This document shows, piece after piece, positions 22,486-44,068 of a stretch of DNA of 64,000 bases. The stretch spans positions 864,001 to 928,000 of the forward strand of contig CBDFJR010000005.1 in the NCBI GenBank assembly GCA_965248535.1, given 5' to 3'. The notes below the pieces were generated by a model. That model saw nothing but the letters and a program-made list of their open reading frames with translations, was not told where the DNA came from and ran no database searches. The DNA comes from Phormidesmis sp. (GTDB lineage Bacteria > Cyanobacteriota > Cyanobacteriia > Leptolyngbyales > Leptolyngbyaceae). The first letter of the stretch is position 1; each line of letters begins with the position of its first letter. The position numbers and the translations under genes were made by a program.

Positions 22486-23172
22486 CTATATTTTGAGAAT
22501 GTAAACGATCGCGAAACAAAAGGGAATCAACTCTCCTCTTTGATTTTTGCTTTTGAAAAGTCGCACCATTTCGTCTTCTGTTAGGTCTTCAATCATGAGA
22601 ATGGCGGTGTCGATCGCAGCTTTTCGGAGGTTTTCGAGTTTTTTATTTTTAGTGCCGAGATTGAGTATTGCAATGGTTGCTGAAGCATCTCCCGAGTGGT
22701 CAAAATCCTCTTTTGCCCAGATTGCTCCACTAGAAGCGTCATATCTGAAGAATGCCTCACAGTCAAACTGTAGGGGTGAGATTGGAAGTGGGCGATCGCC
22801 TCGTTTAATTCCGCAGCGATCTGAACAAGAAAGTAGATTCTCAAATCTTTCTTCTGCCCATTCTTTCTGATATTTTTCTTTGCGCCACTGTTCAGAAATA
22901 CCACAAGAAGCTAGAAGATATTGGTAGTTGATTGTCTCTGATGGATCGGTGAAAGAACTCTGAGACGGAAGATGTTCGATATGGCTATTTTCTAACCTGA
23001 CCTCTACTCCGCAATAGCAGCAAATGTAACCTTGATCAGCCAACAGCGCGTTATGTAAATCTGTTCTCTCTGAACCTCTTAAGTCACTATAACTAGCTGA
23101 CCAGTTTTCGTCGCCTAATGCTTTCCATGCTGTAAGGCTAGACGGTTCTTGACCCTTTTGAATATACTTCAT
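22486..23172 (-). CDS. HNH endonuclease, TIGR02646/PtuB-like
   Basis: MKYIQKGQEP, DQGYICCYC, HIEH, YLLASC, CG.KRG; overlaps the ATPase stop by 4 nt. Confidence 0.8.
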   Translation of the reverse strand: MKYIQKGQEPSSLTAWKALGDENWSASYSDLRGSERTDLHNALLADQGYICCYCGVEVRLENSHIEHLPSQSSFTDPSETINYQYLLASCGISEQWRKEKYQKEWAEERFENLLSCSDRCGIKRGDRPLPISPLQFDCEAFFRYDASSGAIWAKEDFDHSGDASATIAILNLGTKNKKLENLRKAAIDTAILMIEDLTEDEMVRLFKSKNQRGELIPFCFAIVYILKI

Positions 23173-24491
23173 CGACCAATGACTTCATGACGACGGATTA
23201 AAATTTCAGCTTTGACAAATTCTGATTCATCATCGCCGATTTTCTCTGCCATTTCTTTTTTGAGTGCTCTTGCTGCTTCAAGATCGCCGTCTTCAATCAA
23301 TCGAAAAAGTTTTCTTAGCTGTTCTTTAATTTCGATCGATCGACTATCTGCTTCCATTTCATCTTCCAGAATTTCGGCGCTATCTCTTCCGTAGGTTTGT
23401 AGAGATTCAGCAATGATTCCATCAGAAGTTGACTTGAGCCGATAAACTTTACCTTTGACTTCTCCTAAAACTTGAGGCGAATGAGTGGTAACGATAAATT
23501 GACAGTTTGGAAAGGTTCGGGTGAGGGCAGGAACGATATCACGCTGCCACTTTGGATGAAGATGTAACTCGATTTCATCAATCAGGACAACGCCTTCGCC
23601 TTGAAGAGGATCAGGTAGACCGGGGTTAGCGATCGCCAGTCTTCGCGCCAAATCTCCCACCATCGCTAATAGACATTTCTCACCGTCTGAAAGCTGATTG
23701 ATAATCAGTTCTTGACCCTGTTTTTGAACGGTCATGCGGAGGGGCGATCGCCGCACTCGCAGATTTGAAAACCCAGGAAGAAACTCAGTAATTGCTTTTC
23801 GGATCGCTTCTAACTTACGATCAAGATAGACAAAATCATCTCGTCTTTCTTCATTTTCTAGATCTTCTAAAACCCTGAACCATTTAAAGAACTGCTGAAA
23901 TGTAACCTCTTTCTCTCCTAAAGCTTGATTGTAGGCACGTAGCTGGAAGATGGAGTTAAAGCGGTCTAAATCTGCTTGAAAGAAGAATTCATCTGAAGGT
24001 TCCAAATCAACGTTAAGAGTTGTTCTATTCACAGAATAGTGAACCACTAAAGGTATGTTACCTTCCGGACTGTCTTGCCATTTAGTTATTAACTCTTTAG
24101 TAGTTCGTTTCAAACCTTCATCATAAATGTATTCAGCTTGAACGTGCATCATTTTTCTAATTGACCAACTTATATTTTCAGAGTTGAAGTCAATAAGAAT
24201 ATTTAAATCTGCTTGACCTCGGTTATTGTTAATGTCTTGATCGCTTAATGAAGAGTAAAGAGGAGATTGTTGTTTTCTTGCATTAAATATACGAGAGATA
24301 GAATCAGAATCGTCATAGTTATCTCCTAGAACTAGCGAAGCAAAGAGGGAAAATAAAATACCAAGGCAATCCAGGAGCGTAGATTTACCAGCGCCATTGT
24401 TGCCGATCAGCACAGTGATATTTGAATCGAAATCTAGCGTCAGATTATCGATGCCCCGAAATGATTGCACTATCAGACGTTTAACTTTCAT
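23169..24491 (-). CDS. ABC-type/AAA ATPase, PtuA-like
   Basis: GNNGAGKST, QLSDGEK, VLIDEIELHLHPKWQ, QFIVTTHSPQV. Confidence 0.85.
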   Translation of the reverse strand: MKVKRLIVQSFRGIDNLTLDFDSNITVLIGNNGAGKSTLLDCLGILFSLFASLVLGDNYDDSDSISRIFNARKQQSPLYSSLSDQDINNNRGQADLNILIDFNSENISWSIRKMMHVQAEYIYDEGLKRTTKELITKWQDSPEGNIPLVVHYSVNRTTLNVDLEPSDEFFFQADLDRFNSIFQLRAYNQALGEKEVTFQQFFKWFRVLEDLENEERRDDFVYLDRKLEAIRKAITEFLPGFSNLRVRRSPLRMTVQKQGQELIINQLSDGEKCLLAMVGDLARRLAIANPGLPDPLQGEGVVLIDEIELHLHPKWQRDIVPALTRTFPNCQFIVTTHSPQVLGEVKGKVYRLKSTSDGIIAESLQTYGRDSAEILEDEMEADSRSIEIKEQLRKLFRLIEDGDLEAARALKKEMAEKIGDDESEFVKAEILIRRHEVIGR

Positions 24492-25605: not shown

Positions 25606-26250
25606 ATGTGGCAATCGCTGATTTCTTATACCTTGGGGACATTAATCGCCCTGTTTCCGATCGCGAACCCGATCGGGGCCGTGCCGATTTTTTATAGCTT
25701 TACGGCCGATGACACGCCCCGCTATCGCCTCAAACAAGCTCGTAAAACAGCATTCAATGTGGTTGGAGTGCTGGTGACATTTTTGCTGGTAGGCAAACTG
25801 GTGCTCGGCTTTTTTGGAATTTCGCTAGGCGTGCTGCGAATTGCGGGTGGGCTGATTGTCGGGCACACCGCTTGGGAAATGGTCACAGCACGGCGGCGGC
25901 TGACAACTGACGAACACCAAGCAGCCGTTGATCAAGAAGATATCTCGTTTACGCCGATGGCGGTGCCGATGATTGGCGGGCCGGGCGCGATCGGGGTCGT
26001 GATCGGTCAAGCAACTCAGGCAACCGCCTGGATCGATTATCTAGGCTGTGTGCTGGGAATTGGGTTGCTAGGTGGATTGATCTACCTGTTTCTGAGATTG
26101 GGTGAACCTTTGATTGAGAAGATGGGGAAGACAGGCATGGGAGCGCTGAATCGAATTTTGGGCTTTTTGATTTTGGCGATCGCCGTTCAACTCGTCGCCA
26201 ATGGTCTATTGGAATTGATCAAAACAGCCGCGCCTCATTTGTTGAGATAA
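25606..26250 (+). CDS. MarC-family membrane protein
   Basis: IANPIGAVP, FFGIS....RIAGG, PMAVPMIGGPGAI, RILGFLILAIAVQ; start at ATG 25606. Confidence 0.88.
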   Translation: MWQSLISYTLGTLIALFPIANPIGAVPIFYSFTADDTPRYRLKQARKTAFNVVGVLVTFLLVGKLVLGFFGISLGVLRIAGGLIVGHTAWEMVTARRRLTTDEHQAAVDQEDISFTPMAVPMIGGPGAIGVVIGQATQATAWIDYLGCVLGIGLLGGLIYLFLRLGEPLIEKMGKTGMGALNRILGFLILAIAVQLVANGLLELIKTAAPHLLR

Positions 26251-26989
26251 CGTTAGAAGGTGCAACCTTTGACACCAACCGCAGCAAATTGTTGCCGAGC
26301 ACTAAACTCTCTTCGGCAGGAGATAACCCCAACAAACGAATCTTGTGGAGTTCAAGCGCCGGATGTAACCACGGGCCATCGGTGCCGAACAATACCTTAT
26401 GTGCGCCGCCTCTGCGGACTGCTTTGAGCAAATAATCAAACCGACGCACCCCAGAGCTATCGGTATAAACATTAGGCAGCCGGGCAATTTGATCAACGAC
26501 TCGAATGTGGGCTGACCAGTCATCTGCAAAGCTGCCCAAGTGGGGAACAATAAAGTTCACATCGGGATACTGAGGAGCCAGCAGATCAATGATTTCAGGT
26601 TTGCCAACCGGATCGTAGAGGACGGGTAGCCGGAACCTTTGAGCGACCTCGCAAACTTCGCGAGTGACTGGTGCATCGAGTCGATGGGCTTTGATGCCGC
26701 AAAACTTCCATTCAGTCACAGCTTGTTGAACGATCGCATGAATATGTCCCCGATCGCGCTGGGCATGAACAAATGCAAATCCCCAAAATCGCCCTGGATA
26801 CCTGGCAACAATGCGAGCAGTGTTAGCATTTGCTTCTGCATAGTTGCTGTGAAATGGAGAAAAGATCACCGTTTTGTGAATGCCTGCGTCCTGTGCTCGT
26901 TTCAGATAGGTCTCGATCGGGGCATCTGTGTTCCACGGCCCCGTTAACAAGTCGCCTTTTCCGGCATGACAATGACAATCGATAATCAT
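26219..26989 (-). CDS. Amidohydrolase_2-family metallohydrolase
   Basis: IIDCHCH, GIKAH, PHLG, VLFGTDGP, LGNN. Confidence 0.85.
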   Translation of the reverse strand: MIIDCHCHAGKGDLLTGPWNTDAPIETYLKRAQDAGIHKTVIFSPFHSNYAEANANTARIVARYPGRFWGFAFVHAQRDRGHIHAIVQQAVTEWKFCGIKAHRLDAPVTREVCEVAQRFRLPVLYDPVGKPEIIDLLAPQYPDVNFIVPHLGSFADDWSAHIRVVDQIARLPNVYTDSSGVRRFDYLLKAVRRGGAHKVLFGTDGPWLHPALELHKIRLLGLSPAEESLVLGNNLLRLVSKVAPSNVISTNEARLF

Positions 26990-28380
26990 GATCCATACTC
27001 CGCAAAGAATCGAATCACGGTTTCAATACCCCGGAAGACGTTAGATAAACTAATTTTCTCGTTGGGTGCGTGGATATCGTCATCGGGCAAGCCAAACCCT
27101 AGCAGCACGATCGGGACGCGCAACCGCCGATAGAGTTGTTCGACCAGAGGAATCGATCCGCCGCTCCGGGTGAACACGGGTAGAACACCCCAAGTTTGTT
27201 CAACAGCGCGAACCGCCGCCCGCATTACAGGACTGTCTTTAGGCAACAAAACTGGACGCGATCCGCTGGTTATTTTCAGCCGACTGTGAATGGCAGGATG
27301 ACTCAAAGTGTTCAGATAACGTTCCAACAGTTGAGCAATTTCTGTGGGTTCTTGATCAGGAACCAATCGCAAACTAAATCGAGCCATTCCTCGACTCGGA
27401 ATCACCGATTTTGCACCCGCTCCTGTGTAGCCGCCTGTCAGTCCGTTAATAGTCAGTGCGGGGCGAATTGTCATCCGCTCAACTAGGTTATAGCCAGGTT
27501 CACCCCAGCCCATCGGCACGTCAAGGTCAGCCAAGATTTGTTGGTTGCGTTTGCAGGCGCAGCGTAGTTGTTGCCGTTCTGTTGGGTGGAGATTTCTGAC
27601 TCGGTGATAAAAGCCAGGAATCGCCACTTTTCCGGTACGATCGTGCAATCCCGCTACCATTTCGCTCAACGCTTGTAATGGATTCAACACAGCGCCGCCA
27701 TAACGCCCCGAATGCAGATCATGTTTGGGGCCGCGCACTTCTAGCTCACCGTTGAGATTGCCCCGTAACCCATAGACAATCGAAGGTCTGCCGCGCCCTA
27801 GCATCTCGGTGTCTGAGACTAAGACAGCATTGGCTTGCAGTCGGTTGGCTTCGCGATCGAGAAACGCCGACAGATTGGGACTGCTAATTTCTTCTTCCCC
27901 TTCTAACCAAATTTTGAGATTTAACGGCAATCGTCCGGTGGTTCTCAAATAGCTTTCGATCGCTTTTAGGTGAACAAAGAACTGTCCTTTGTCGTCGCTG
28001 GCTCCTCTTGCAAATAAGTTGTCTCCAACAATAGTGGCTTTAAAAGGTGGAGTGCGCCATTCCTTTATAGGATCAACAGGCTGTACATCATAATGTCCAT
28101 ACAGCAATAACGTTGGCTTTGCCTCTGCCATTAACCAATCTGCATAGACACTGGGTGCGCCACCATTTACGCCAGCAATCACTTGCACATGATGTAATCC
28201 GATCTCCGATAGGTGTCGCGCTAACCAATGAGCACAGGCTTTAATATCTTTTCGGTGTTGCGGCAGAGCCGAAATAGTAGGAAAAGCGATCAGGTCAGAC
28301 AACTGGGAGAGCCAGCGCGATCGCTGCTCTGATTGCTGACTATAGCGGATCGGGTTGACCGTAATCGGTGAAGTCATCAT
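26986..28380 (-). CDS. M20-family dipeptidase/deacylase
   Basis: YGHYDVQP, RGASDDKG, EGEEE, DLHSG, HAPNE. Confidence 0.9.
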   Translation of the reverse strand: MMTSPITVNPIRYSQQSEQRSRWLSQLSDLIAFPTISALPQHRKDIKACAHWLARHLSEIGLHHVQVIAGVNGGAPSVYADWLMAEAKPTLLLYGHYDVQPVDPIKEWRTPPFKATIVGDNLFARGASDDKGQFFVHLKAIESYLRTTGRLPLNLKIWLEGEEEISSPNLSAFLDREANRLQANAVLVSDTEMLGRGRPSIVYGLRGNLNGELEVRGPKHDLHSGRYGGAVLNPLQALSEMVAGLHDRTGKVAIPGFYHRVRNLHPTERQQLRCACKRNQQILADLDVPMGWGEPGYNLVERMTIRPALTINGLTGGYTGAGAKSVIPSRGMARFSLRLVPDQEPTEIAQLLERYLNTLSHPAIHSRLKITSGSRPVLLPKDSPVMRAAVRAVEQTWGVLPVFTRSGGSIPLVEQLYRRLRVPIVLLGFGLPDDDIHAPNEKISLSNVFRGIETVIRFFAEYGS

Positions 28381-28381
28381 C

Positions 28382-29527
28382 TCAGGTCAGCAAACTTAAG
28401 GGAACAATGGTATCGCCTACCATCCAATAATCGGCAGCACCAGAAGATTTGAGTTCCACCATTGCAGCGTGAACACAGTTGGTTCCACGCGGAGTGTCAT
28501 CTGGGAATTTTTTATAGCCAAAGCCAACCGGATGCCATTCATATCGATCCATAAACCATAAATGCACCTGTCCCGATGCCCGATCGACTTCAAAATCAAG
28601 ACGGTCGATCGCGCCAAACGCAAATTCAAAATCTTTGACTGCATAATCGCCCCGGCTACCCTGGTGAAGCTTCGTAAACCCCGTGCGATGTTTTTTGATC
28701 AATGCTTTTAACTTGCTGCGAACCTTTGCATCTCGGCGAATCACCGCTTCTAGATCCACGGTCAGCGTCTTTCCGCCCCCTGTTAGATAATGGTCGAAAT
28801 GCTTTTTTGCCAGAGGCAGACCTGCGAGGACAGTTGCACCCGCAATTTGAGCAACTCGTGCAGGTTCAAAGAGCGCACAAGCACACTGCGAAGCGACTGC
28901 GGGCGGAAGACTGGTAATCTTTTTAGGATCTAAAAGCATCTGTTTGGCAGTGTCGCCACACTTTTTCCGGGAGTCTCGCTGAACTTCACTCCAGCGGCCC
29001 GTCGGCAAGTGATTGTGGTTCACTCCAGGAGTAAATTTTGTAACAAATGTTGTACCAGGTGGGCGCGTTTTGGGAGCTACTGGAGCAGGCTTTTTTCCAG
29101 AACGGCGGCGGTCAGCCAGAAAATTTGCAGCATCGCGAACCTGACCCGTAGCCTGTAGATCTCCCACGGGTTTGGGTAACACTCCCGTCATCACAACCGT
29201 CTTGGCATAATTGAGCCGAAGCCAATTGACCATTCCTGCATAGGAAGCAGCACGGCTCCATAGCTCGTTTAACTTAGCTGACCCTAAACTATCTAAGGCC
29301 CGCAGCAGTTCAGCCATGTTCAGCCCATTCAGGTTAAGAAAGGCACCTCTCCAATCTCCTGCGCTAACTGCATTCTCGAAGGCTCGGCGAACAGAACTAG
29401 GAACCGATTCATACTCCAGTTCAAAGGCTGCCTCATCTTCTGTTTGCCACTGAGAATAGGCATTGTTAGAACCAGATTGCTCTGAAATGAGCGGTGCCTC
29501 AAACAACCACTGACCTGTTTTGTTCAT
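28382..29527 (-). CDS. Hypothetical protein with WLFEAP/acidic leader
   Basis: 381-aa ORF with AGGAG RBS; N-terminus MNKTGQWLFEAP...NNAY...EDEAAFELEYE; body not recognised. Confidence 0.8.
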   Translation of the reverse strand: MNKTGQWLFEAPLISEQSGSNNAYSQWQTEDEAAFELEYESVPSSVRRAFENAVSAGDWRGAFLNLNGLNMAELLRALDSLGSAKLNELWSRAASYAGMVNWLRLNYAKTVVMTGVLPKPVGDLQATGQVRDAANFLADRRRSGKKPAPVAPKTRPPGTTFVTKFTPGVNHNHLPTGRWSEVQRDSRKKCGDTAKQMLLDPKKITSLPPAVASQCACALFEPARVAQIAGATVLAGLPLAKKHFDHYLTGGGKTLTVDLEAVIRRDAKVRSKLKALIKKHRTGFTKLHQGSRGDYAVKDFEFAFGAIDRLDFEVDRASGQVHLWFMDRYEWHPVGFGYKKFPDDTPRGTNCVHAAMVELKSSGAADYWMVGDTIVPLSLLT

Positions 29528-29580
29528 GATTTAACTCCTGATTGCTTTGGGTAACTCCAAAAGAATCGCAATGTTGTCCC

Positions 29581-30567
29581 TTAGCGATTCTGCAAAAATG
29601 AAGCAGCCCTGATGCGCGGCTGCCAATATCGAATCGGAACTTCGTTGTGAGACCCCGTTGCCGATCGGGTCACAAATACGTTGAGAAGCTTTTGGCGTTT
29701 TGCTTTGGCTTGCAGACTAACCGCCTGAGCTTTGGTGCTGCACGACGGTCTTTTGGGAGGCGGACAATCGATATTGATGTAATAAATGTAGAGGTTACTG
29801 GAGGGGTTTGTGGCGGCCCACCTTGCCCATCCGCTATCGTCGCCGCCATTGTAGGTGCAGTCAAATCCCCAACACTCCCGAATATTAGCGGCATACTTTT
29901 CCTTTGATAAAGCAATCTGCCGCATCGGTAGCCCACCGCCTGAATGACAGGCCAGAATAATCTTACCCACCCTCGGCGTTTGTCGCCCTTGGTGGGGCCC
30001 ATAAGCGCTGAGAGATGCGAGTATCTGATCGAGGTAAGCATCGAACCCGCCCGGTTGAACAAGCGTTCCGGCTTGCGATCGCGACCCCAAGGTCGGCGCA
30101 ACTAAAATGACATTTTTCCCACTGGCATTCAATTCTTCCCGCAGCCCAAAGAAGGGGTAAGCGGTGCGATTCCAGTACTGATTAATCGTCAAGTTAGAGG
30201 GGAAATAGCCCCGACCTGGCGCTTTTCCTCGAATCACGTTGTCTCTGTGATGACCCTGTAGATAGAGAATTAAATCCACGCTGTCGGTCGCTGAATAATT
30301 CTCAGGAATAAAAATTCCCGTCATGGGTCTGGGGCAGACGGGCGGAGCCTTCGGGCTGCTGGTCGTACAGCCGAGGTTGATGTCAACATAGAGGGTCGAG
30401 TTGAGCGGCGTTGATTCGGTGCTGATCAGGGTGGGAAGGGCGGGCAAGAGTGGGGGAGCTTCAAACAGCCATTCCTGTTCAGCCTCAAGGGTTCCATAAG
30501 GGTTGCTGTTGTGAATCGCTTCTGACGAGAACGGTGCCTCAAATAGCCAGGGGTGAAGAGTCTTCAT
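29581..30567 (-). CDS. Alpha/beta-hydrolase-like protein with doubled WLFEAP leader
   Basis: ILYLQGH, ILACHSGGG nucleophile elbow, GFD, late His (SHNEVP); WLFEAP occurs twice in the first 38 aa. Confidence 0.7.
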   Translation of the reverse strand: MKTLHPWLFEAPFSSEAIHNSNPYGTLEAEQEWLFEAPPLLPALPTLISTESTPLNSTLYVDINLGCTTSSPKAPPVCPRPMTGIFIPENYSATDSVDLILYLQGHHRDNVIRGKAPGRGYFPSNLTINQYWNRTAYPFFGLREELNASGKNVILVAPTLGSRSQAGTLVQPGGFDAYLDQILASLSAYGPHQGRQTPRVGKIILACHSGGGLPMRQIALSKEKYAANIRECWGFDCTYNGGDDSGWARWAATNPSSNLYIYYINIDCPPPKRPSCSTKAQAVSLQAKAKRQKLLNVFVTRSATGSHNEVPIRYWQPRIRAASFLQNR

Positions 30568-30576
30568 AGTTTTGCG

Positions 30577-31737
30577 CTAGGTCGGTGGATTATATTCCCA
30601 GTGCCAAGGTTCACGATCGTAGGGATAAAACCCAAAGGAGGCGGCATTTTGCACCAGCCATTGATAGGCAGAGGTTGCCCGCATCTTCTTCACGTTTTTA
30701 GAGCTAATGCCAAACCCTAGCCAGAGATCGATCGCTCGACCCGTCTGGTGCACACTTTTGCCGGGAGGTGCCACCCACTTGCGGGCTTCCGCTTCAGAGC
30801 CATAGCGCTTCAGCGCCGCGTCCCAAAGTTGCTTCTGATGGGCGACGCTGCGAAACCCTGAGACCAGTTCTAGAGTCGGGGCCGCTAATCCAGCGCTACG
30901 GGCTGCCTCCACTAGCAAAAGATAGGACTGAGCCGCCTGATCCAGCAGCAGAACTTTTTTGCCTCTGTAGCCCCGGACTTTGACGAGTCTCGATTCAGGA
31001 GGAATGGTAATCACCTTGACTCGACCACCGCCCGTTTCAGTCGTTTCTCTATTGCTGGAGTCGGATTGCTCAGACAACACCCCAACTTGGCGCAAATGGC
31101 GATCGATTTGGCGGCGATTTGCAACGGGCACTCGCTCCCACGCGGCTAAAAATTGATGCTGCCGCCCATCTTTGAGATAGCGAAGATAGCCAGTAGGGGT
31201 GATATGCCAGAGCCGGATGCCGCGGGCAGCATCCAGTTCTGTGCCGCCTGCCGCCCGCACTTCTGCAAAGAGTTCTGCATATTTTTGAATGGGGCGGGCA
31301 ATTTCTTCATGGGGAGTGCTGTCCCAAGGAGAGGCGGTTGAGGCCACCCCGCGCAGCGATCGCCAAGCTGCCCGATTAAACTGAAAGACTCCCCAAGCGC
31401 TGATAAACGGCTTTCCCTGCCGTTGGGCACTCGGTAAAGCATTGAAGATATTTGCCGGACGACCGAACATTGCCCCACTTTCAGTCTGGGCTAGATGTTT
31501 AACCGTCGTGACAAAGATTTCGCCTTGACCGTGCGATCGGGCCAGTCGATCAATAGGGAGTAATGCCGCATTGCTGCGACTGGTCAGCCGAGCATTGTTG
31601 GGTAATCCTGGCGGACGGCGTGATTTCCATTTCGGCCCATACTCTTTTCCAGGAACAACGGGATATGGACTGTTGTTTTTTTCAACAGGGGGCGAGACAA
31701 CGGGTGCTTCAAAGAGCCACTGGCTTTGCGTCTTCAT
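30577..31737 (-). CDS. WLFEAP leader + lysozyme/transglycosylase-like domain + M15B (VanY-like) peptidase
   Basis: C-terminal SGFRS..HQ..LW, APPGKSVHQTGRAIDL, EPWHWEY (M15B); N-terminal half has AQTES and WGVFQF, resembling transglycosylase ES/GLMQ motifs. Confidence 0.8.
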   Translation of the reverse strand: MKTQSQWLFEAPVVSPPVEKNNSPYPVVPGKEYGPKWKSRRPPGLPNNARLTSRSNAALLPIDRLARSHGQGEIFVTTVKHLAQTESGAMFGRPANIFNALPSAQRQGKPFISAWGVFQFNRAAWRSLRGVASTASPWDSTPHEEIARPIQKYAELFAEVRAAGGTELDAARGIRLWHITPTGYLRYLKDGRQHQFLAAWERVPVANRRQIDRHLRQVGVLSEQSDSSNRETTETGGGRVKVITIPPESRLVKVRGYRGKKVLLLDQAAQSYLLLVEAARSAGLAAPTLELVSGFRSVAHQKQLWDAALKRYGSEAEARKWVAPPGKSVHQTGRAIDLWLGFGISSKNVKKMRATSAYQWLVQNAASFGFYPYDREPWHWEYNPPT

Positions 31738-31799
31738 CGTTCAAACTCTCTCGTTGAAAGGGTGAGCCGTTTGCATTAAGCGGTGGATCAATCATTTAG

Positions 31800-32957
31800 T
31801 TACCCCACAACTCGCGGTGCAGGCATTAAGCCATTCGATCGGGCAAACACGGGATCTCGTCGAGCACCACTGGGCGGCGGGCCGGGCTGATAGACGTTCC
31901 GGGGTGGCGGAGTTGGGCGGCTGATCCGCATTCCTTCTTCACTAGAGAGCCATTCTTCAGAATATTCAGCAATGCGGTAGAGTAACGCCTCAAAATCTGT
32001 GCGGTTTTTCTTGAGCACAAACGGCTCGGCTAGCCAGCGAATAATCTCTCGTCCAGCTACGGCCATGCGGTTCATGGTGCTGGCGTGAACCGATTGACCA
32101 AAATATTGCCACAGCACGAGTTCAATCATTTCCCAGGCGTTGGCTGCCCCAAACTGAGCGCGCACATCGGGAGCTTCTAGAACCTTAAAGGCTTCGGCGA
32201 GAGATTGGCTAGTTTCGACTCGCAAGACGTTGATATAGCCATAGGAAGAGTTCTTTAAATTGTTGCGTAAATCTAACCCGGCTCGACGCACGATCGCCAT
32301 AGAGCCAAAGGTCGGATCAGTCGCATTTTGCCGAATCACTTCACTGATCCGTTTGTCGCGCCAAAACTTAGCGGTTTCCCCAATAAAGTGAGAAAAAAGC
32401 CCATGAAACTCAGGATTGAGCCGAGCACCCGGGCCCGGATCGCGCCCATAGCCCAAGACGCGGGCATAGGCTCGACGACGATCGCGCTGGTGGTAGCGCA
32501 AAATATTGTGCCGATCGAAGCGATAGAGTCCATAAGCGCCTTCGCCGTTAGAAATCCGCAGGGTTCCGGCTCGAAATAGCTCTTGCAGCTTGTGCATCAC
32601 TTTAAACACCCCCAACAGTTCATGAATAGCGAGGTAGTAAAGGTCGGCTGTAGCCAGGATACGATCGCTGGTCACGGTGTCGTCATAATCAGCCACCCCG
32701 GCCGAGACTTGGGTTTGTCCCAGATCAACAGGGGCATTGCTTCCCAAGCCAATCAGATCGGCGAGTCCGCCATCGGTCGGGGTTCCCTTGCCGTTTTGGG
32801 CGGCATCAAATTTGTTCACCTGGTCATCGACCATGCGGTTGAGAACTTCGGCCAGTTGGGGGTTGGCGACGAGTTCCGGGCCTAGGGCCTCAATGGTGTT
32901 TTGCAATAGTGCGGCAACGCGATCGTTGCGCTGATCATAATCTCGTGTGTTAGGCAT
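31800..32957 (-). CDS. Hypothetical protein (385 aa)
   Basis: Long ORF co-oriented within the operon; no family recognised; Pro-rich C-tail. Confidence 0.8.
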   Translation of the reverse strand: MPNTRDYDQRNDRVAALLQNTIEALGPELVANPQLAEVLNRMVDDQVNKFDAAQNGKGTPTDGGLADLIGLGSNAPVDLGQTQVSAGVADYDDTVTSDRILATADLYYLAIHELLGVFKVMHKLQELFRAGTLRISNGEGAYGLYRFDRHNILRYHQRDRRRAYARVLGYGRDPGPGARLNPEFHGLFSHFIGETAKFWRDKRISEVIRQNATDPTFGSMAIVRRAGLDLRNNLKNSSYGYINVLRVETSQSLAEAFKVLEAPDVRAQFGAANAWEMIELVLWQYFGQSVHASTMNRMAVAGREIIRWLAEPFVLKKNRTDFEALLYRIAEYSEEWLSSEEGMRISRPTPPPRNVYQPGPPPSGARRDPVFARSNGLMPAPRVVG

Positions 32958-33008
32958 AGCTCAATTTCTATCCTTCTAAAATCTCGATCGGTCAGAGGCT
33001 GTCAGTAG

Positions 33009-34418
33009 TTACTTAAAAGAATTAGAGAGTCCGGGGGATAGATCCGCCAGCACCTTGAGTTGGGAGAGTAACTCCCTGAGCGTTTGGTTGACCCGCTCAT
33101 AAGACAAGAGTTGCTTCAGTAATGGATTCCGCTCAAGTTGACTTCCTTCCCTCACATCGGCAGGGATACCAAACTGGATATAGTCCAAAATTAGACCAAT
33201 GACCCAAAACAGCGTGTCGGCTTGATCTGCAACAAACTCCAGCCCATATCGACCTGACGTTGCGAGGATATCAGGAGCCTCGATACTACTGAAGCGATCT
33301 ATCCAGTCAGTGAGGTCATTGACTGTGATTCTGGGCAGCACAAATTGAAGAGATAAGTCTTGACCCAAACCCAAGAACAGAGACTGATCTGGGAAATCCG
33401 ATAGGGTTGAAAATCGAGCCGACTCAGTTCGCCGTTCAGATTCGCTGAACCCGATCGAATCCATTGCTGCCATAAAGCTGGCATTGCTATCGGCAATCAC
33501 AGGCAACAAGACACTGGAACGAGAGAGCTTATCGCTGTAACTCCCTGACTCTTGCTCAGACACACTTGCTCCGAGATATTTCGTCCAAAAGCCGTTTAGC
33601 GTATCTACATAATTCTGAATCAACTCAAAAGCGGCAACTTGAGCTTCATCCTTGGTTGTCACGAGATTATCGACTAACCCAGTTCTAGTTAAAGAGCTTG
33701 TCCCTGGTTGCGATAGAGAAGCCAGCTTTGCTAGTTTGCCAAACTCTACAAGGTTTCTTTTTAGAGTGCTGAAGTAGATATCGACTCGACTGCGGCGGGG
33801 TTCATCCAATCGCCCAAACTCTTCAACTAGGCTCGTCATCTGGCTACGAACTAAAGCCCGTAGCGCTTCTACTGCATCTTGGTCAGCCGTTGGGTCAAAG
33901 GGAGCGATGCCTTCTAGCACTTGCAGAGCATCTGCCGTGATCAGGCTGGCTTGACGGTATAGATTTGCCTGTTCAACAGAGAGTTGCCCAATCAAGTCTG
34001 TACTATTGTTTCCATTGCCAGAGGTGGGAGCGTACATAGAAACAACGCTGCGGCTAGGCACGGTCACAATTTTGCCATCGGTTGCGCTGGGAAATGCGGT
34101 GTTTAGCGCACTCATGAATCCGTCAGAACCTCTTCCCGGTGACCGCCCTAATACTTGAGTCAAGGCGCGCTCCACCTGCCGTACTAGCAAATTTGTATTG
34201 CTTGTTGCACCCGTGCGAGCAATACCTTCCTCATAAGCAGTTGGCTCATTGTTTGCCTGTTGTCCCAAAAATTGAGCAATTTCAGCCAATTGTTGAGCCA
34301 CCTGATTGTCGGTATCTGGCAGCTTTTTTTGATAGAGCTTGTTAAGAAGGCGATTACGGAAGTCTTGAAGCTGTTGAAGTGTAAAGTCTTTTTGTTCTAG
34401 AAAAACTGGAAAAGCCAT
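33009..34418 (-). CDS. Hypothetical, largely helical protein
   Basis: Long ORF; start at ATG 34418 after a GAGG RBS; no family recognised. Confidence 0.78.
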   Translation of the reverse strand: MAFPVFLEQKDFTLQQLQDFRNRLLNKLYQKKLPDTDNQVAQQLAEIAQFLGQQANNEPTAYEEGIARTGATSNTNLLVRQVERALTQVLGRSPGRGSDGFMSALNTAFPSATDGKIVTVPSRSVVSMYAPTSGNGNNSTDLIGQLSVEQANLYRQASLITADALQVLEGIAPFDPTADQDAVEALRALVRSQMTSLVEEFGRLDEPRRSRVDIYFSTLKRNLVEFGKLAKLASLSQPGTSSLTRTGLVDNLVTTKDEAQVAAFELIQNYVDTLNGFWTKYLGASVSEQESGSYSDKLSRSSVLLPVIADSNASFMAAMDSIGFSESERRTESARFSTLSDFPDQSLFLGLGQDLSLQFVLPRITVNDLTDWIDRFSSIEAPDILATSGRYGLEFVADQADTLFWVIGLILDYIQFGIPADVREGSQLERNPLLKQLLSYERVNQTLRELLSQLKVLADLSPGLSNSFK

Positions 34419-34505
34419 TGTTATTAACCTCATCTACAGCATTAATCATTCACGAGTTGATTGGACTTATCCTACTCATTAGCCAGTCCGATCTTGGTGG
34501 TGTAC

Positions 34506-35855
34506 CTATCGCCTCCCTAAAATGCGATAGAAATTGTCGGTAATGGTTTGGGGGGTTGCAAGTTGACGGTCTAAGGCAAACCGAGCCGCACTGATCATGA
34601 ACCGAACCGGAACAGTGCCGGGATCTTGTCCGGCGGCCAGCCGTTGCCCCGCTAACTCCACCATTGCCATTTGCTTGGGCCCAAACTGCATCGCTTGAGC
34701 CAGAGATTGATTTCCAAACTGGCGGTAAGGCTGAAAAACCATTGTATCCACGACCATCTCAGCCGCCGGATAAAAGGTCTTCATAAACTCGGCAGGAATG
34801 TCGTTGGGCGTGACTTTAGGATAGAGCCGTTGCCAGACTCGCGTCAGATCCGCCGCCATTTTTTCAAACCCCATGCGGCGCAGCAAAATCAGGTTGATCA
34901 ACGTTCGCAGATAGGGAGTGGGATGCACAGACATGGCGCTAAAGCGAACGGTGCTGGACGGCGATCGCCCCACCACATCCATCAGTGATTCCACCGCAGC
35001 CGGGCCACCCAGAACCAAGGCAAACATATCAGCCATTGTTTCTTTGTGCCACAGCGCCCAGACTTGCGCCACATTGGTTGGAATGTTGCCCTCGGTGGTT
35101 AAACGCTGATAGATTCGAGCCGGAATTTCTTCCCACAAGCCTAAATCTGCCTGAAGATTGTGCGAGACTTCGTGCAAAATGCTCGACAGGGCCCACACAT
35201 TATCTAGCCGATGCTGAGGCAGCATAATCAGGGGAAAGGGATTGGGATTGCGCCGCAGCCGCATGATCGGCACCCCCCGTCGAAATGTGGCCGGACTGAA
35301 ACCACTGTTGGCATAGCTAAAGGGCAGCAAACTCGGAGTAGGTTGAGCAGTTCCTAGACCGACGTAGAGATCTTCATAGCAGTTGGCACAGATGCGATCG
35401 ACGGCCCGCAATCGTTCACCAAAGTTAGAAAGTCGCTGAATAAATAGATCGAAGTAAAAATCCCAAATGCCCTCGACATAAAGCACTCGGTTGCCGACCA
35501 CCTGCTTGCGCTCTAACAACACTTGAATGCGGCTAGAGGTTGGCTCACGGCGGGCTGCTGCTGCCGCTGCCTCGACCCAGCGCGATCGCTCAATCAACTG
35601 ACTGCGAAATTGGTCAATAAACCGATTCACCGCGTCAATATGGGCCTCACTCGGAGCCGCAACGCCTGTGCCAAACTCATCTTTGATGAATGGCCGCAGC
35701 GATTTTGCGTGACGGGTGAGATTAATCGACTGGATGTTGAGCCAGTTATCGAGCAAAAGATGTTCACCTGCGGTGGTTGCCCCTTTCATAACCTGAGCCG
35801 CAGATTTGGCATCGGCAGCAGGATGTTGCTTGGGTGGAGCAGAAGAATTTGCCAT
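34506..35855 (-). CDS. Putative zinc metallopeptidase (gluzincin-like)
   Basis: LHEVSH (HExxH) followed ~40 aa later by ETMAD (ExxAD), then HP. Confidence 0.65.
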   Translation of the reverse strand: MANSSAPPKQHPAADAKSAAQVMKGATTAGEHLLLDNWLNIQSINLTRHAKSLRPFIKDEFGTGVAAPSEAHIDAVNRFIDQFRSQLIERSRWVEAAAAAARREPTSSRIQVLLERKQVVGNRVLYVEGIWDFYFDLFIQRLSNFGERLRAVDRICANCYEDLYVGLGTAQPTPSLLPFSYANSGFSPATFRRGVPIMRLRRNPNPFPLIMLPQHRLDNVWALSSILHEVSHNLQADLGLWEEIPARIYQRLTTEGNIPTNVAQVWALWHKETMADMFALVLGGPAAVESLMDVVGRSPSSTVRFSAMSVHPTPYLRTLINLILLRRMGFEKMAADLTRVWQRLYPKVTPNDIPAEFMKTFYPAAEMVVDTMVFQPYRQFGNQSLAQAMQFGPKQMAMVELAGQRLAAGQDPGTVPVRFMISAARFALDRQLATPQTITDNFYRILGRR

Positions 35856-35905
35856 CGTCACAGCTTCCTAGTGAGGTGGGTGAAGCACAGCGGCCCTGAG
35901 AACGC

Positions 35906-37105
35906 TCAACGAAGGGCGGTAGCCCGGCTAGCACAGACGGGACACCGAGCATTAGTGGCTGCTGCTGCTCGACGGGGACTGGGCGGTGCAGTGCGCTGAC
36001 GTAGAACGGCATTTCGCACGATCGCTTGCTGCACGAGTTGCGGGTTACTCAACACTCGACGACTGGCCGATGCCATGGCTTTGACGGCCAGCGCGCCGTT
36101 GATCGGTTGACCTGCTTTAGAAGCCGCTTTGAGAGTTGCAACCGTGCGCCGTTGAATCGTGGGCACCGTTCGCAGCAGTTGCCGCCCGACGGGGCCTTGC
36201 TGGCGTAGCGTCTTCACGAGTTGACTGTTGGCTTGAGCCAAAATCGGCATCACCGGACGCAAGGCCCGCCGTCCGCCCATGATCGAAATTGTGATCGGTA
36301 AGGCTGCACCTAGCGTCGTTTCTGACTCAGCTTCGGTGGCGGCTTCTGCCGATTGCGCGGCTAGAAACTCTGTCAGGGCTGCTTCTTGAGCCGATTCAGT
36401 CTGACCCACTTCGGCTTCAGCTTCGTTGGTGCCAAAAAATTCTGCTTCCATCTGTCCGGCTTCCATTTCGCCTTCTTGCACGAGCGCGCTGGTGAGTTTG
36501 GCGGCTAGGGGTCCCGCGATCGGGCCAATGCCTGGAATCAAAGCAGCCAGTTTGCCCGCCACGATCGGAGCAAATCGCTTGGCCAAGGGAGCCGCTAGTT
36601 TGGCAACTTTGCCAATGCCTCGTTTAACCGCCCGAAACGCTTTCTTAAAGAAATATTCTCCCTCGTCTTCAGGATTGGAGTATGGATTGGAGTAGGGATT
36701 AGAGTACGAATTGCTGTAATGAGCAGCTTCGTGGCTAGTTTCCCACTCATCCTCAAACTCAGGATTGGAGTATGGATTGGAGTAATGAGCGGCTTCGTGA
36801 TTAGTCTCCCACTCATCCTCAAACTCATGGCTGGCTTGGGGATTGGAGTAATGAGCAGCTTCGTGGCTAGTTTCCCACTCATCTTCAAACTCAGGATTAG
36901 AGTAGGGATTGGAGTAATGAGCGGCTTCGTGATTAGTCTCCCACTCATCCTCAAATTCAGGATTGGCTTGGGGATTGGAGTAATGGGCAGCTTCGTGATT
37001 TGTTTCCCATTCATCCTCAAACTCAGGGTTAGAGTAGGGATTGCTGTAGTGGGCGGCTTCGTGAGAAACCGGGGCCTCAAACATTGCTTGGTGTTGCGTT
37101 GCCAT
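35906..37105 (-). CDS. Acidic-repeat protein with MFEAP leader and cationic amphipathic segment
   Basis: Start MATQHQAMFEAP at ATG 37105 after a GGAGAG RBS; tandem HEAAHYSNPYSNPEFEDEWET repeats, then FFKKAFRAVKRGIGKVAK...; C-terminal CPVC. Confidence 0.85.
   Translation of the reverse strand: MATQHQAMFEAPVSHEAAHYSNPYSNPEFEDEWETNHEAAHYSNPQANPEFEDEWETNHEAAHYSNPYSNPEFEDEWETSHEAAHYSNPQASHEFEDEWETNHEAAHYSNPYSNPEFEDEWETSHEAAHYSNSYSNPYSNPYSNPEDEGEYFFKKAFRAVKRGIGKVAKLAAPLAKRFAPIVAGKLAALIPGIGPIAGPLAAKLTSALVQEGEMEAGQMEAEFFGTNEAEAEVGQTESAQEAALTEFLAAQSAEAATEAESETTLGAALPITISIMGGRRALRPVMPILAQANSQLVKTLRQQGPVGRQLLRTVPTIQRRTVATLKAASKAGQPINGALAVKAMASASRRVLSNPQLVQQAIVRNAVLRQRTAPPSPRRAAAATNARCPVCASRATALR
36656..37063 (-). 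repeat. Coding tandem repeat: five 66-bp units plus a degenerate sixth
   Basis: Units encode HEAAHYSNP(YS/QA)(NP/SH)EFEDEWET(N/S); the sixth has an expanded YSNP tract. Confidence 0.95.
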
Positions 37106-37903
37106 TTGTAAAACTCTCCGTATGAATTTAGGGGCGCAAATTGTTGAACTACGATCGTCGAAAGGTTCCAAGAAGCGTTTGGGCAACGATCGGGGCGAGA
37201 CGCTTGGCAAAGGGTGCAGTCATGGCGACTTATCGGATGGTTTGAAGGACTTTTTGAACGGAGTCCAACTCCCACTCACGCGCCATTGTGAAATGAGTGT
37301 AATGCGACGCTTGCGGGATTTCCAGTTTGAATTTATGCCCCGGATGGGAATCAGGTCTAAAACTATGGGTTGCTCTGAACGTCTCCCGCTCATCTGAACG
37401 TTGCGGATAGGAATAGTGAATTGCTTCAACCGTTGCGCTTCCGATATTTACACCTTTTTTCTTACCATTCGCGTATCCGTTCATTCGGATATTCTTCCAA
37501 CATAGGCGATCGAACTAATAGACTGTTCGTTCTCTATATAACCACTGCTATCTCTCAGAGTGCAGTCCCTTTTTTAAGGGTCGCTTATGTTTAGTAGCGC
37601 AAACGAGTGTCGTTCAAATAAGGGACGGGCGATCGGGCAGTTCCATGATTTCATTGAAACCAGAGGCAGGCTCAAAAAGTCAGCGTTTTTAGCCCATTTT
37701 GATTCTGACCGCCACTGCAAAGTACCCGTTCGGGCGATTGTCTTTTGGTCTTATTCATTGCACAATACAGGGTTTAGTATCAACTGAGTTCAGCTATCAG
37801 CATTCACCGAACACGGGTATCGCTAGTTTCTCTGCTCGCGCCATATTGTCTTCTTTCAGTTCGCTCTCGAAGCTTTCCGCTCCAGTAGCTTAAGGAGATA
37901 CTA

Positions 37904-39491: not shown

Positions 39492-40469
39492 TTACGATTT
39501 TCTAATTATTTTGAGGCGAGTTGGAGCACCATTCTTAGCACCATCAAAGACAATCAGAACTTCGTAGTGGACTTCATTGCCTGACGTACTTTCCGCTAGT
39601 AGAGCAAGTCCCTCAGCCTTAGTATTCTCATACACGGGAATCTCTCCCAGAAGCTTGATTTGCCCAACCTTACCCGATGTGCGAGTACCCGGCAAACAGT
39701 CTTCACCATCCCAGAAATAAGCTTGGTATGAACCCGGCCCATCCCCCATTGGGCCAGCCAGAATCAAAAACCCCTCGCTAACTCGTGTAATATCCCGAAC
39801 GCCTCGCCCATCTAAGTTTATAAAAACTAAATCTGCTCCAGCTATTGGTTTGGAAAACTTGCACTTCAAGATCGGTACCCAGTTTTCCCGGAGCACTGGC
39901 CCACGGAAACCAATGTATAGCTGTTCATCACGAACTGCGATTCCTTCGATATCAACGCCGTTCTCCTTACTTGGAATGTGGCTGAAGCGATTTAGCAACG
40001 GATTGGTATCGATGATGGAACGTAAGTTAGTCTCCTCAAGTGCTGAGACATTGCCACCAGCATCTAACTGAAAGCGAAACAAACAATCGCGATCCGGTTC
40101 TGATTCTACTGCCCCCGCAGAGAACATAGTTTCCTGATTAGCTTGGTAAGACTTTTTTGGATCAATCTTCTTTCTTTTCCACGAGTGAGAACCTACCACA
40201 TAGACCGTATTATTCTCACGGGCGATCCCCTCGATATCTATCTCTTCTTTTGCGATATCTAGCTCGATACCACTGCCTACAGTTTGGTAGCTGCTGCCAT
40301 TAAGCTTTAGGATTTTCACCTTGTTCCCCTCATCAGCCCCAATGATCAGGAGCTTATCCATCACTTCAATGGCACTGATGTTCTCATTCTGATTCTTTTT
40401 ATTGTCGTCACCGTCATAAATGTTTCTGATGATGTTGACAGTCCCTAAAAATGAGATTGATGATGTCAT
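39492..40469 (-). CDS. DUF3616-like beta-propeller protein
   Basis: EIDIEGIA, VVGSHS.KRKK, PSKENGVDIEGIA, IGFRGPVLR, LDGRGVRD, KAEGL. Confidence 0.75.
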   Translation of the reverse strand: MTSSISFLGTVNIIRNIYDGDDNKKNQNENISAIEVMDKLLIIGADEGNKVKILKLNGSSYQTVGSGIELDIAKEEIDIEGIARENNTVYVVGSHSWKRKKIDPKKSYQANQETMFSAGAVESEPDRDCLFRFQLDAGGNVSALEETNLRSIIDTNPLLNRFSHIPSKENGVDIEGIAVRDEQLYIGFRGPVLRENWVPILKCKFSKPIAGADLVFINLDGRGVRDITRVSEGFLILAGPMGDGPGSYQAYFWDGEDCLPGTRTSGKVGQIKLLGEIPVYENTKAEGLALLAESTSGNEVHYEVLIVFDGAKNGAPTRLKIIRKS

Positions 40470-40630: not shown

Positions 40631-41212
40631 TTAAACACGGAAGCGAATATATGGCTGATAGGTATTTGGCATAGAAACACACTTTTCGCGGGTGTGACCA
40701 GGATTTTTCCATGTGGGGGCCGGAACTTGCAAACATTCTGCCCGATTGTAGGTTGCTCGCCCTGCTTCAAGCGTAGTTCCTGCTATGGACAACCCAACCT
40801 GCTTACCGTTGAACGATGCACGGATAGCAGAGAGAAGTTTGTTGACTGTCAACTCCCGCCGTAGATTGGTTGCCATTTGTGGAGATTTCACGGCTGCTCC
40901 GCTAATCACTCTCTCCAGCGAACCACTTGCAAAGTTCTTAAAGTAGGCCGATGTTGCACCTCCTTTAGAAACGGCAACATCAGTAGCGATAACGGCTGCA
41001 AGTTTCATGTACTCAGCATGACTAAATTCTGTCGAGTAGACGACCGTCCAACCGTTATTAGCAAGGCTCTGTTCCACCTCTGGTCGATTGGTCTTGTGAT
41101 AAGCGGAAGCCTTGTCCGAGAAGCCTAAAGCTCCAGTCAATGAGACTCCAGTGATTAGAGATAGGGAAGCAAGTTTTGCAACAATTGATCGGGATTGAAA
41201 AATCGTTTTCAT
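40631..41212 (-). CDS. Secreted hypothetical protein
   Basis: Sec-type signal ending in ASA; Cys pair near the C-terminus. Confidence 0.65.
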   Translation of the reverse strand: MKTIFQSRSIVAKLASLSLITGVSLTGALGFSDKASAYHKTNRPEVEQSLANNGWTVVYSTEFSHAEYMKLAAVIATDVAVSKGGATSAYFKNFASGSLERVISGAAVKSPQMATNLRRELTVNKLLSAIRASFNGKQVGLSIAGTTLEAGRATYNRAECLQVPAPTWKNPGHTREKCVSMPNTYQPYIRFRV

Positions 41213-41611: not shown

Positions 41612-42719
41612 ATGATTTTGATTATTCAAGAACGTGCAACACCAGAGCAAATGCGGCAAATGCTTCTGGAGTTGGGGATTTATATTAAAATTGGGCGTTG
41701 CATAATGAGGGTATGAATTAGGGTGAATTGGCATGGAATGTCCCGAATGCAACTCAACTCATATCCGTAAAAATGGAATCAAGAAAAGTAAGCAAAATCA
41801 CATTTGCGTCGATTGTGGTCGGCAATTTATTAATGTTTACGCCCCGCCCCAAGGCTATAGTGATGCGATGAAACGGGAATGTCTCAAAATGTATGTCAAC
41901 GGCATGGGTTTTCGGGGGATTGAGCGGGTTAAAGGCGTGCATCATACCACCCTGATTACTTGGGTCAGACAAGTCGGCGAACGCCTGCCGAATGCTTACT
42001 CTCCTGACAAAATACCCGAAGTCGGTGAGTTGGATGAATTGGAAACCTTCATTGGTCAAAAAAAACAAAATCTGGATCTGGACGGCCGTTGACCACTTCA
42101 GCCAAGGCATTTTAGGTTGGGTCTTAGGCGACCATAGTGCGGATACGTTCCGTCCGTTATGGACTATTGTGGCAACTTGGCAGTGCTATTTCTATGTCAC
42201 AGATGGTTGGTCAGTCTATCCCGGTTTCATTCCCGACGGTGACCAAATTATTTGCAAGACCTACATGACCCGCGTAGAAGGCGAAAATACGAGATTGAGA
42301 CACTATCTAGCTCGATTACATCGCCAGACACTTTGTTATTCCAAGTCAGCAGAAATGCTAGCATACTCGATTCGATTGTTACTTCACTACCTAAAATTTG
42401 GAGATGTCCCCGTAGCCCCGCTTGATTCATACCTTTATTCAGCAACGCCAAAATTGCAGTGGATGTTCAGCGAAAGATTTTGGCCGGAGGCGGGGAACTT
42501 CATGCAGATTGTGAGCGTGTTTTACTTAAGCATGGCAGCCACCAAGCGGCGCTTTGGGGGGCAGACTGGTATCCACTGAAGCAGGCGATCGGCTACGAAT
42601 CGATTATCAATATCCGGTCTGGTGATCACAACTGTTCCATGGAAGTCCAAGATCCTAAGTTGCGATCGCAAATGCATCAAATTATTCATGCACTGATGGG
42701 AGGTGTCGCATGGCAATAA
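41612..42719 (+). pseudogene. DUF5674-like gene interrupted by IS1
   Basis: Removing the IS and one target copy gives MILIIQERATPEQMRQMLLELGIYIKIAVDVQRKILAGGGELHADCE...LWGADWYP...INIR. Confidence 0.85.
41694..42449 (+). mobile_element. IS1-family insertion sequence (756 bp)
   Basis: Imperfect terminal IRs GGCGTTGCATAATGAGGGTATGAAT / ATTCATACCTTTATTCAGCAACGCC; AAAATTG duplicated on both flanks; InsA (CPECNS...CVDCGRQF, from 41733) and InsB (WIWTAVD, TDGW.VY, RVEGENTRLRHYLARL) joined by an A8C slippery run at 42058-42066. Confidence 0.95.
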
Positions 42720-43858: not shown

Positions 43859-44068
43859 AGCGATCGACGTGCGGATAGTAGCTCAATTTTATCGCATCGA
43901 TTGCTGGGCTTATGCCCAAAAAAACGATCGCTCTGAATAGTTAATGTGGCGATCTCTAAAAAAGTCAGATGATCTCTGTAAAGTTACTGGAAATTTCTCC
44001 AGGATTTATCTAGAGATGAGAATTATTCGGTGAATATAATTACCAATACCTTGTCATTCACCTCAGTC

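Follow-up and report, generated by a model that had tools for sequence, protein, structure and literature searches.

The question raised by this locus is why four proteins with otherwise unrelated bodies should begin with the same short sequence. The locus lies in a stretch of 64,000 nucleotides from Phormidesmis sp. (assembly GCA_965248535.1, contig CBDFJR010000005.1, positions 864,001 to 928,000), hereafter the window, and is a minus-strand operon in which one core gene, S, and three cargo genes encode an N-terminal leader built around the residues FEAP. An earlier note on this DNA had described the leader and proposed that it is a dedicated signal for targeting, loading or processing. After comparison of homologous loci a dedicated signal, acting at the protein level, is well supported, and the balance tips modestly towards a reading in which the leader would be both the address tag and the pro-peptide of an effector processing and delivery system that has so far gone undescribed.

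In order of transcription the operon comprises a broken paralog of S, then S, A, B and C, three cargo genes, an M20 dipeptidase gene and an amidohydrolase gene, with gaps of less than 90 base pairs (bp) between intact genes and a LuxR gene reading divergently (coordinates are given in Table 1). All four leader-bearing starts (37105, 31737, 30567 and 29527, minus strand) and their N-termini are as previously quoted, with Phe at residue 9 in every case (pattern M-x7-FEAP), and the observations that accompanied them were borne out: the other five genes (A, B, C, M20 and amidohydrolase) show no FE within the first 40 residues of their products, the four bodies are unrelated (past residue 45 the best pairwise BLASTP E-value is 5.1), and no Sec-type signal is seen, the most hydrophobic 11-residue stretch of the first 40 residues having a mean Kyte-Doolittle (KD) value of 0.15–1.08, which is a proxy and not a SignalP result. 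The six-frame open stretches of the whole 5.03 Mb genome contain 11 matches to [LM]FE[AST]P, of which five fall within the four leader genes and the remaining six have no start Met within 12 residues in the inspected context. For a looser form of the leader pattern, sought in the first 80 residues, the background is 15 of 2807 open reading frames (ORFs) of at least 200 amino acids (aa), the window's own genes included.

The core genes are widespread. Homologs of C numbered 3064 among 8000 candidates, and among the 120 matches listed all the named ones are 'hypothetical'. A query with C gave 31 genome loci, the titles of which include Cyanobacteria, Chloroflexota, Actinomycetota, Acidobacteriota, Planctomycetota and Melainabacteria; in metagenomes, 552 of 600 stretches examined were confirmed and 80 were kept. 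The closest named relatives of the window locus are cyanobacterial, and a full copy of the operon is carried on a Paraburkholderia plasmid. C is preceded by S, A and B, in the order S-A-B-C, in 53 of the 53 loci with at least 6.5 kb of upstream flank, although these loci were chosen by similarity to C, include near-duplicates and are therefore not independent. Downstream of C, an M20 gene is found in 28 of 40 loci, an amidohydrolase gene in 33 and one or the other in 36. The system is patchy, occurring in 9 of 61 relatives and in 7 of 401 genomes of the phylum (own genome counted), and no relatives of C were found in viral contigs or phage records.

The motif is kept in homologous loci, a point on which the earlier note had let its proposal depend. 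Among 48 distinct leaders, FEAP is exact in 35, is preceded by Trp in 32 and is followed by a later E-aromatic/Leu-E in 22; the N/S-P/A-Y motif and the Glu-rich tract (three of the four proteins) that had been described along with FEAP are present in the window, but NPY-like residues occur in only 4 of the 48, and NPY is no general element of the signal. Of 56 cargo ORFs, which were picked by the motif, 44 have Phe as residue 9 and 12 have it as residue 10–11, in most of the latter a second Met bringing it back to residue 9. When the 45 distinct ORFs lying between C and the M20/amidohydrolase genes in the window's clade were instead taken without regard to motif, 31 had FE-x-P (compared with the background of 15 in 2807), five LFE, one an acidic leader and eight none of these; the nine that lack FE-x-P or LFE include, by eye, two near variants and several fragments or inserted genes. 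Codons vary synonymously over the 48 homologous leaders, with all six Leu, four Ala and four Pro codons in use, and the DNA upstream of leader genes has only a ribosome-binding site in common, which together indicate that selection acts on the peptide. Fixed position, synonymous variation, confinement to this type of operon and about 30 attached architectures thus all speak for the proposed signal. A correction concerns the fourth protein, whose start is at 37105: it is S, a conserved member of the core (1232 family representatives at 50% identity), and not cargo. Cargo leaders resemble the N-terminus of S, the likeness fading past about residue 15, and this N-terminus is probably their source. 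In a second clade, none of 18 slot ORFs has FE-x-P, eight have Glu-rich leaders, and the S proteins often begin with E-A-x-P; among 119 long homologs of cargo 2, 51 begin with a leader of NPEPF type. FEAP is therefore one dialect, that of a single clade, of an acidic leader common to S and cargo.

The nature of the cargo points to the cell envelope. Clustered by architecture, the 48 cargo with a leader form 30 groups, and of 31 slot proteins picked by eye from the first loci, 21 (18 above cut-off) have peptidoglycan- or lipid-directed domains, namely GH25, VanY/M15, M23, M74, SLT, Amidase_2, CHAP, PLD, OmpA, PG_binding, extensin-like and DUF4056; nine others lack a Pfam match and one has a weak, unrelated match. 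In the window, cargo 1 has an unknown middle domain, and cargo 2 has a C-H-S-G-G elbow that is presumably an alpha/beta-hydrolase motif. Elsewhere, cargo 2 is found joined to DUF2272, peptidoglycan-binding, VanY, glucosaminidase and OmpA domains. The preprint 10.1101/2025.01.14.632903 places DUF4056 among the Lipocone families, and PMC10318531 describes DUF2272 as a papain-like family linked to wall degradation. The substrates of such cargo lie outside the cytoplasm, yet the leaders lack a Sec-like stretch: by the same proxy, none of 56 reaches a mean KD of 2.0 over 11 residues, the maximum being 1.63. In two trypsin cargo the acidic leader stops immediately before I-I-G. S1 proteases usually begin at such an I-I-G after activation, and the end of the leader would fit its removal.

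A comparable boundary is seen in S itself. Its N-terminal part contains 5.6 tandem 22-aa acidic repeats (36696–37064), then an E-x-E-x|F-F boundary before residue 152, followed by a cationic amphipathic helix with a Gly/Pro hairpin, an acidic linker, and a large, conserved, basic helical C-terminal domain. An acidic tract ending in E-x-[ED]-x|F-[FLIW] is present in 110 of the 150 best S proteins versus 2.7% of shuffles, and the hydrophobic moment of the 18 residues past it is 0.57, against 0.27 when shuffled (0.81 in the window's S). The spacer-plus-helix unit is repeated up to four times in some S proteins, and one of 33 gave a weak Pardaxin match (E 7e-4, under the cut-off). An enzyme that may act at such boundaries is core protein A, in which HEVxH, a downstream E-x-x-A-D and H-P are kept in 22 of 22 sequences, with H228, E229, H232, E272, A275, D276 and H311 invariant, a pattern that we take to be that of gluzincins. 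It has both the HEXXH and the downstream Glu, as third ligand, by which gluzincins are recognised, and is a candidate for the leader-processing protease; it has no Pfam or PDB sequence match of note, and one family member weakly matches Zn_peptidase (PF04228, E 0.32).

Proteins B and C are all-helical in their models. Homologs suggest that the true start of B is at residue 6, and its model includes a four-helix bundle for which PDB and viral libraries gave no match at E<=0.001, the best (Z 13.2 over 126 residues) being to generic bundles. The model of C had no significant PDB match (best Z 6.3). The missing fold matches do not prove that the folds of B and C are new. Both lack a hydrophobic tongue, and a clear transmembrane helix (KD 1.9 over 19 residues) is reached by none of 98 B, 115 C and 124 S homologs and by 6 of 85 A homologs. 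Scans against Pfam and NCBIfam gave nothing noteworthy for S, A, B, C, cargo 2 or cargo 3; PADLOC defence profiles matched none of seven operon proteins, core genes included, PHROGs gave one weak match, to the S repeats only, and PDB sequence searches of operon proteins were empty or non-significant. For S the ESM Atlas returned no clusters other than unnamed ones, and for C nothing usable.

A mechanism that would tie these features together can be proposed. The M-x5-W-L-F-E-A-P box and the acidic tract would be bound by a core protein, and cargo would be gathered with S on an assembly of B and C, probably by acidic tracts pairing with the basic domain of S or with B/C. Protease A would cut at the acidic/hydrophobic boundary (E-x-E-x|F) and remove the acidic part, both activating the cargo and freeing the cationic amphipathic helix and hairpin of S, which might then breach a membrane. 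The assembly could leave the cell as a particle or through a breach made by S, whereupon the released enzymes would attack the envelope of competing or prey bacteria, and M20 and amidohydrolase would recycle the released peptides. The basis of this proposal is the conservation, the nature of the cargo, the lack of Sec-like signals, the protease motif and the S boundary. Complex prediction of a 36-aa leader with A, C and the C-terminal domain of S yielded no verdict either way (score 0.00).

Several points weigh against this mechanism. Binding, cleavage, transport and target are all steps that we infer. Export is the weakest of them, as the operon is without an ATPase or integral membrane protein; neither family scans nor hydrophobicity revealed an ATPase, a pore of the outer membrane or a clear transmembrane protein among the core proteins. 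An envelope-related domain is lacking in ten of the 31 cargo, 30 of 71 loci (11 of 38 in clade I and 19 of 33 in clade II) have nothing in the slot, and no immunity genes are obvious beside the cargo, either in the window, where the gaps between cargo genes are 9 and 53 bp, or elsewhere, where ORFs of at least 90 aa were viewed. The leader of cargo 1 lacks an acidic tract and so has no obvious cut site. In S, net charge goes from -8.4 before the boundary to +4.2 after it, a positive value that is inflated because the most basic site of each protein was chosen. Finally, the earlier note had proposed scanning for orphan cargo with a leader profile, and such a scan gave none: built from 38 leaders, so that matches inside operons arise partly by construction, the profile found none at E<0.1 outside these operons in 61 genomes. 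A search with cargo 2, made without a positive control, found none in 18 genomes, and no leader was seen on the DUF2272 proteins, which occur in 1 of 5 and 2 of 61 genomes.

A bolder version of the proposal, which can be entertained at a little short of even odds, is that the operon specifies a new class of effector delivery machine, free of ATPase and spread over many phyla, in which S would be a protease-activated membrane penetrator, B and C the carrier, and a leader of about 12–40 residues would load any protein. Its modules turn up again in other combinations: NPEPF-type leaders accompany S and A in Proteobacteria, and on Burkholderia and Tolypothrix plasmids C occurs beside an S8 protease and multi-domain cargo.

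The main rival, unlikely but deserving serious attention, is that the operon is turned on the cell itself. Helices of S released by A would breach the cell's own membrane and let the wall hydrolases reach its own peptidoglycan, in the manner of holin and endolysin, with programmed death, filament breakage, or spore or vesicle release as the outcome and with the leader keeping the enzymes latent and timed. Signal-less peptidoglycan hydrolases, the lack of ATPase and immunity genes, a dedicated LuxR regulator, and the M20 and amidohydrolase genes of recycling type that are present in 36 of 40 loci would all be at home in such a system. Conflict with other cells is better suited by the rapid turnover of cargo between close relatives (30 architectures in 48 cargo) and by a domain shared with DUF4157 proteins of extracellular contractile injection systems (eCIS), and self-lysis also sits badly with a core that is kept though the slot is empty and with the failure to find a phage copy. 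Holin-endolysin cassettes share with this operon the use of signal-less wall hydrolases; the operon differs from them in having no holin-like transmembrane protein or phage link.

A second and rather improbable alternative is intracellular storage, in which acidic leaders and the basic domain of S would condense the cargo into a cytoplasmic body or a B/C shell and thereby hold harmful enzymes in check until the cell dies, the leader serving as a loading signal like an encapsulin cargo peptide and nothing being actively exported. It draws on the strongly acidic repeats and basic segments of S, on B and C being soluble helical proteins and on the missing transporter, but B and C did not match any capsid, encapsulin or microcompartment protein, in what is a weak fold comparison, family scans of the operon proteins gave no shell protein, and the conserved amphipathic helix behind a cut-like boundary is left unexplained. 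There is a slim chance, slimmer than that of storage, of a pathway like those for ribosomally synthesised and post-translationally modified peptides (RiPPs), with S as the precursor of membrane-active peptides, the FEAP box as the sequence recognised by modifying enzymes (A, B, C, M20, amidohydrolase, and a pyridoxal phosphate (PLP) enzyme in the Rhizobium type), and cargo that borrowed the leader for processing only. The repeated spacer-plus-helix units and the small-molecule-type enzymes conserved as neighbours fit this, whereas the large conserved C-terminal domain of S, the presence of leaders on enzymes of 150–700 aa, and the absence of known RiPP-modifying families, RiPP recognition elements or peptide transporters among 12 proteins scanned do not.

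The relation to eCIS requires separate consideration. Residues 150–381 of cargo 3 are fused to DUF4157 (PF13699), a marker of eCIS effectors according to PMC11297309, in 43 of 119 homologs among the matches listed. None of these 43 has a FEAP-type leader, and 24 of the other 76 start with a leader of FEAP, MYLxEAP or NPEPF type; the separation suggests that the domain moves between two delivery tags. That the leader instead loads cargo into an eCIS encoded elsewhere in the genome is most improbable, even though the genome holds two sheath genes (C2:520053 and C5:2231585) and three DUF4157 genes, cargo 3 has this shared domain, and eCIS use N-terminal signals that PMC11297309 describes as unconserved. 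Of 26 carrier genomes, only 7 gave a match to the eCIS tube family PF06841; among the 13 with a completeness rating of 90% or more it was 4, and neither G012 (99% complete, with FEAP cargo) nor G051 (one contig) gave one. The operon is thus independent of eCIS, and FEAP is missing from the start of the DUF4157 proteins that this genome encodes. Two eCIS-like loci, with sheath and DUF4157 genes, lie at G000:C2:520053-546476 and G000:C5:2231585-2240592. The last and least credible alternative, that the leader is a passive relic of gene capture in which new genes recombined behind the 5' end of S and kept its first codons, would account for the likeness to S that decays past about residue 15 but is largely refuted by a protein sequence that is conserved although third codon positions and the DNA upstream are free to vary, and further by the fixed spacing from the start and the occurrence in both Cyanobacteria and Chloroflexota.

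The proposed delivery system was also compared with known systems. Its logic resembles that of eCIS and polymorphic toxin systems. With eCIS such as the PVC and Afp systems it shares a non-Sec N-terminal signal and variable effectors encoded beside the core, and an associated HEXXH domain (PMC11297309), but the parts that define eCIS were not found: the operon is without sheath, tube, baseplate and AAA ATPase, none of which was matched by Pfam, NCBIfam or PHROG families among the operon proteins scanned. According to PMC11297309, eCIS signals have no conserved sequence and are slightly basic, unlike the conserved box and acidic tract found here. Polymorphic toxin systems with PVC-metallopeptidase, PrsW or other proteases likewise combine a constant trafficking N-terminus, a variable effector and a processing peptidase (PMC3482391), and the operon has the constant N-terminal element and the variable effector (30 architectures in 48); it differs in that none of the Table 1 signature domains that were compared matches, the protease would act in trans and no immunity genes were seen. 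In the Lipocone preprint (10.1101/2025.01.14.632903), the broken-hairpin type of trafficking also involves signal-less, immunity-less, envelope-targeting effectors with a short common element, but that element is a C-terminal beta-hairpin and has no core operon, unlike the linear leader at the N-terminus and the core of four genes described here. Tripartite alpha-pore-forming toxins (Nhe/Hbl, Ahl, Mak) also have several long helical proteins per operon, but their Foldseek matches to B and C (E 0.5–2, Z<=8.7) are non-significant among generic bundles, and B and C lack the tongue. Animal antimicrobial peptide precursors have an acidic propeptide followed by a cationic amphipathic helix starting with Phe, as in S; homology to them was not seen, the weak Pardaxin match being under the cut-off. 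A description of the operon or leader was not found in the literature, although subscription journals and supplements, notably those of the Aravind group, could hold one. Judged on its components the system is rated as categorically new, its effector function being putative.

If the proposed mechanism is right, it would add a secretion or delivery route to those of bacteria, used in monoderms and diderms alike, and would explain many signal-less wall hydrolases with Glu-rich leaders that are annotated as hypothetical, DUF2272, OmpA or FlgJ-like. The short leader and fixed core might serve as a protein-loading tag, and the cargo slot, in which 9 of 31 proteins have no Pfam match, points to unknown antibacterial enzyme domains.

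Table 1. Features of the operon and its flanks in the window; pLDDT, predicted local distance difference test; HTH, helix-turn-helix.
Feature	Position	Strand	Basis or remark
LuxR-type (GerE) HTH regulator, 140 aa	37904..38326	+	PF00196, E 7e-17
Broken remnant of first S paralog (S1)	37152..37484	-	84-aa ORF at 37230-37484
Core protein S, 399 aa, FEAP leader	35906..37105	-	without Pfam or NCBIfam family
Core protein A, 449 aa, putative gluzincin zinc metalloprotease	34506..35855	-	invariant HEVxH, E, D
Core protein B, 474 aa, all-helical	33009..34433	-	model pLDDT 80
Core protein C, 385 aa, all-helical	31800..32957	-	model pLDDT 70; most conserved gene
Cargo 1, 386 aa, FEAP leader, C-terminal VanY/M15 D,D-carboxypeptidase	30577..31737	-	PF02557, E 3e-23
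Cargo 2, 328 aa, doubled FEAP leader, putative alpha/beta-hydrolase	29581..30567	-	no Pfam match
Cargo 3, 381 aa, FEAP leader and acidic tract	28382..29527	-	C-terminal domain common to eCIS DUF4157 proteins
M20 dipeptidase, without leader, conserved accessory gene	26986..28380	-	PF01546; NF006053 above cut-off
Amidohydro_2 enzyme, without leader, conserved accessory gene	26219..26989	-	PF04909, E 3e-15

The divergent LuxR-type gene is probably the regulator of the operon, and a BLAST relative of it lies near 15 of 28 loci with full flanks; a scan for promoters and terminators gave a signal at or below chance. In the S1 remnant, similarity runs on beyond the stop of the ORF and then disappears, and tblastn with the S1 protein of locus L007 aligned residues 1-113 (54% identity, E 1e-29). 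Many loci have an optional gene of 130–320 aa between A and B (e.g., L001:7642-8520), which is absent from the window, and in one locus (L065:12325-13669) two genes without leader, presumably Uma2-like, are inserted in the cargo slot.

Operon variants were also seen. A Proteobacterial form consists of S, a distant A (E 7e-24), a 684-aa gene, a PLP enzyme and cargo with an NPEPF-type acidic leader; the loci from Rhizobium, Ensifer and Paraburkholderia (L177:5706-16266, L181:8654-16206 and L182:8891-12954) have S-like genes, a distant A and an unnamed gene of 550–720 aa, and two of the three have a PLP aminotransferase-class enzyme and a cargo gene. The Rhizobium 684-aa gene is only weakly similar to C (E 0.04–0.27), and no homology to B was found. 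A third clade, from cyanobacteria (L046:2217-12916, L172:5740-17423 and L173:3369-14538), has Asp/Glu-rich S genes, A, a gene of 640–660 aa that is not detectably related to B, and C, with DUF4438 and LuxR genes in place of cargo. A second operon type, on plasmids of Burkholderia pyrrocinia (NZ_CP091309.1, L167:5269-21426) and Tolypothrix (NZ_CP063787.1, L168:9468-20686), has distant C homologs (E 2e-26 and 1e-31), an S8 protease, several paralogs of an unnamed 'FPxFV' family and a weak Trypco2-like gene, its cargo being multi-domain (Amidase_2, C70, C92) with short motifs repeated between domains. No relationship could be detected between B and the partner proteins found in the Burkholderia and clade III loci.

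Other genes of the window include, near the LuxR gene, a DUF3616 protein (39492-40469, minus strand) and a 193-aa signal-peptide-like protein without a Pfam match (40631-41212, minus strand). A gene pair at 22486-24491 (minus strand), which by its motifs we take to be an AAA_21-type ATPase with an HNH nuclease of a retron- or Septu-like defence system, adjoins a HerA-like gene (20989-22422), the C-terminus of which runs on in another frame at 20691-21083. By sequence appearance, an IS1-like two-ORF transposase lies at 41733-42579 (plus strand) and an NB-ARC/WD40-like protein of 1207 aa at 44030-47653 (plus strand).

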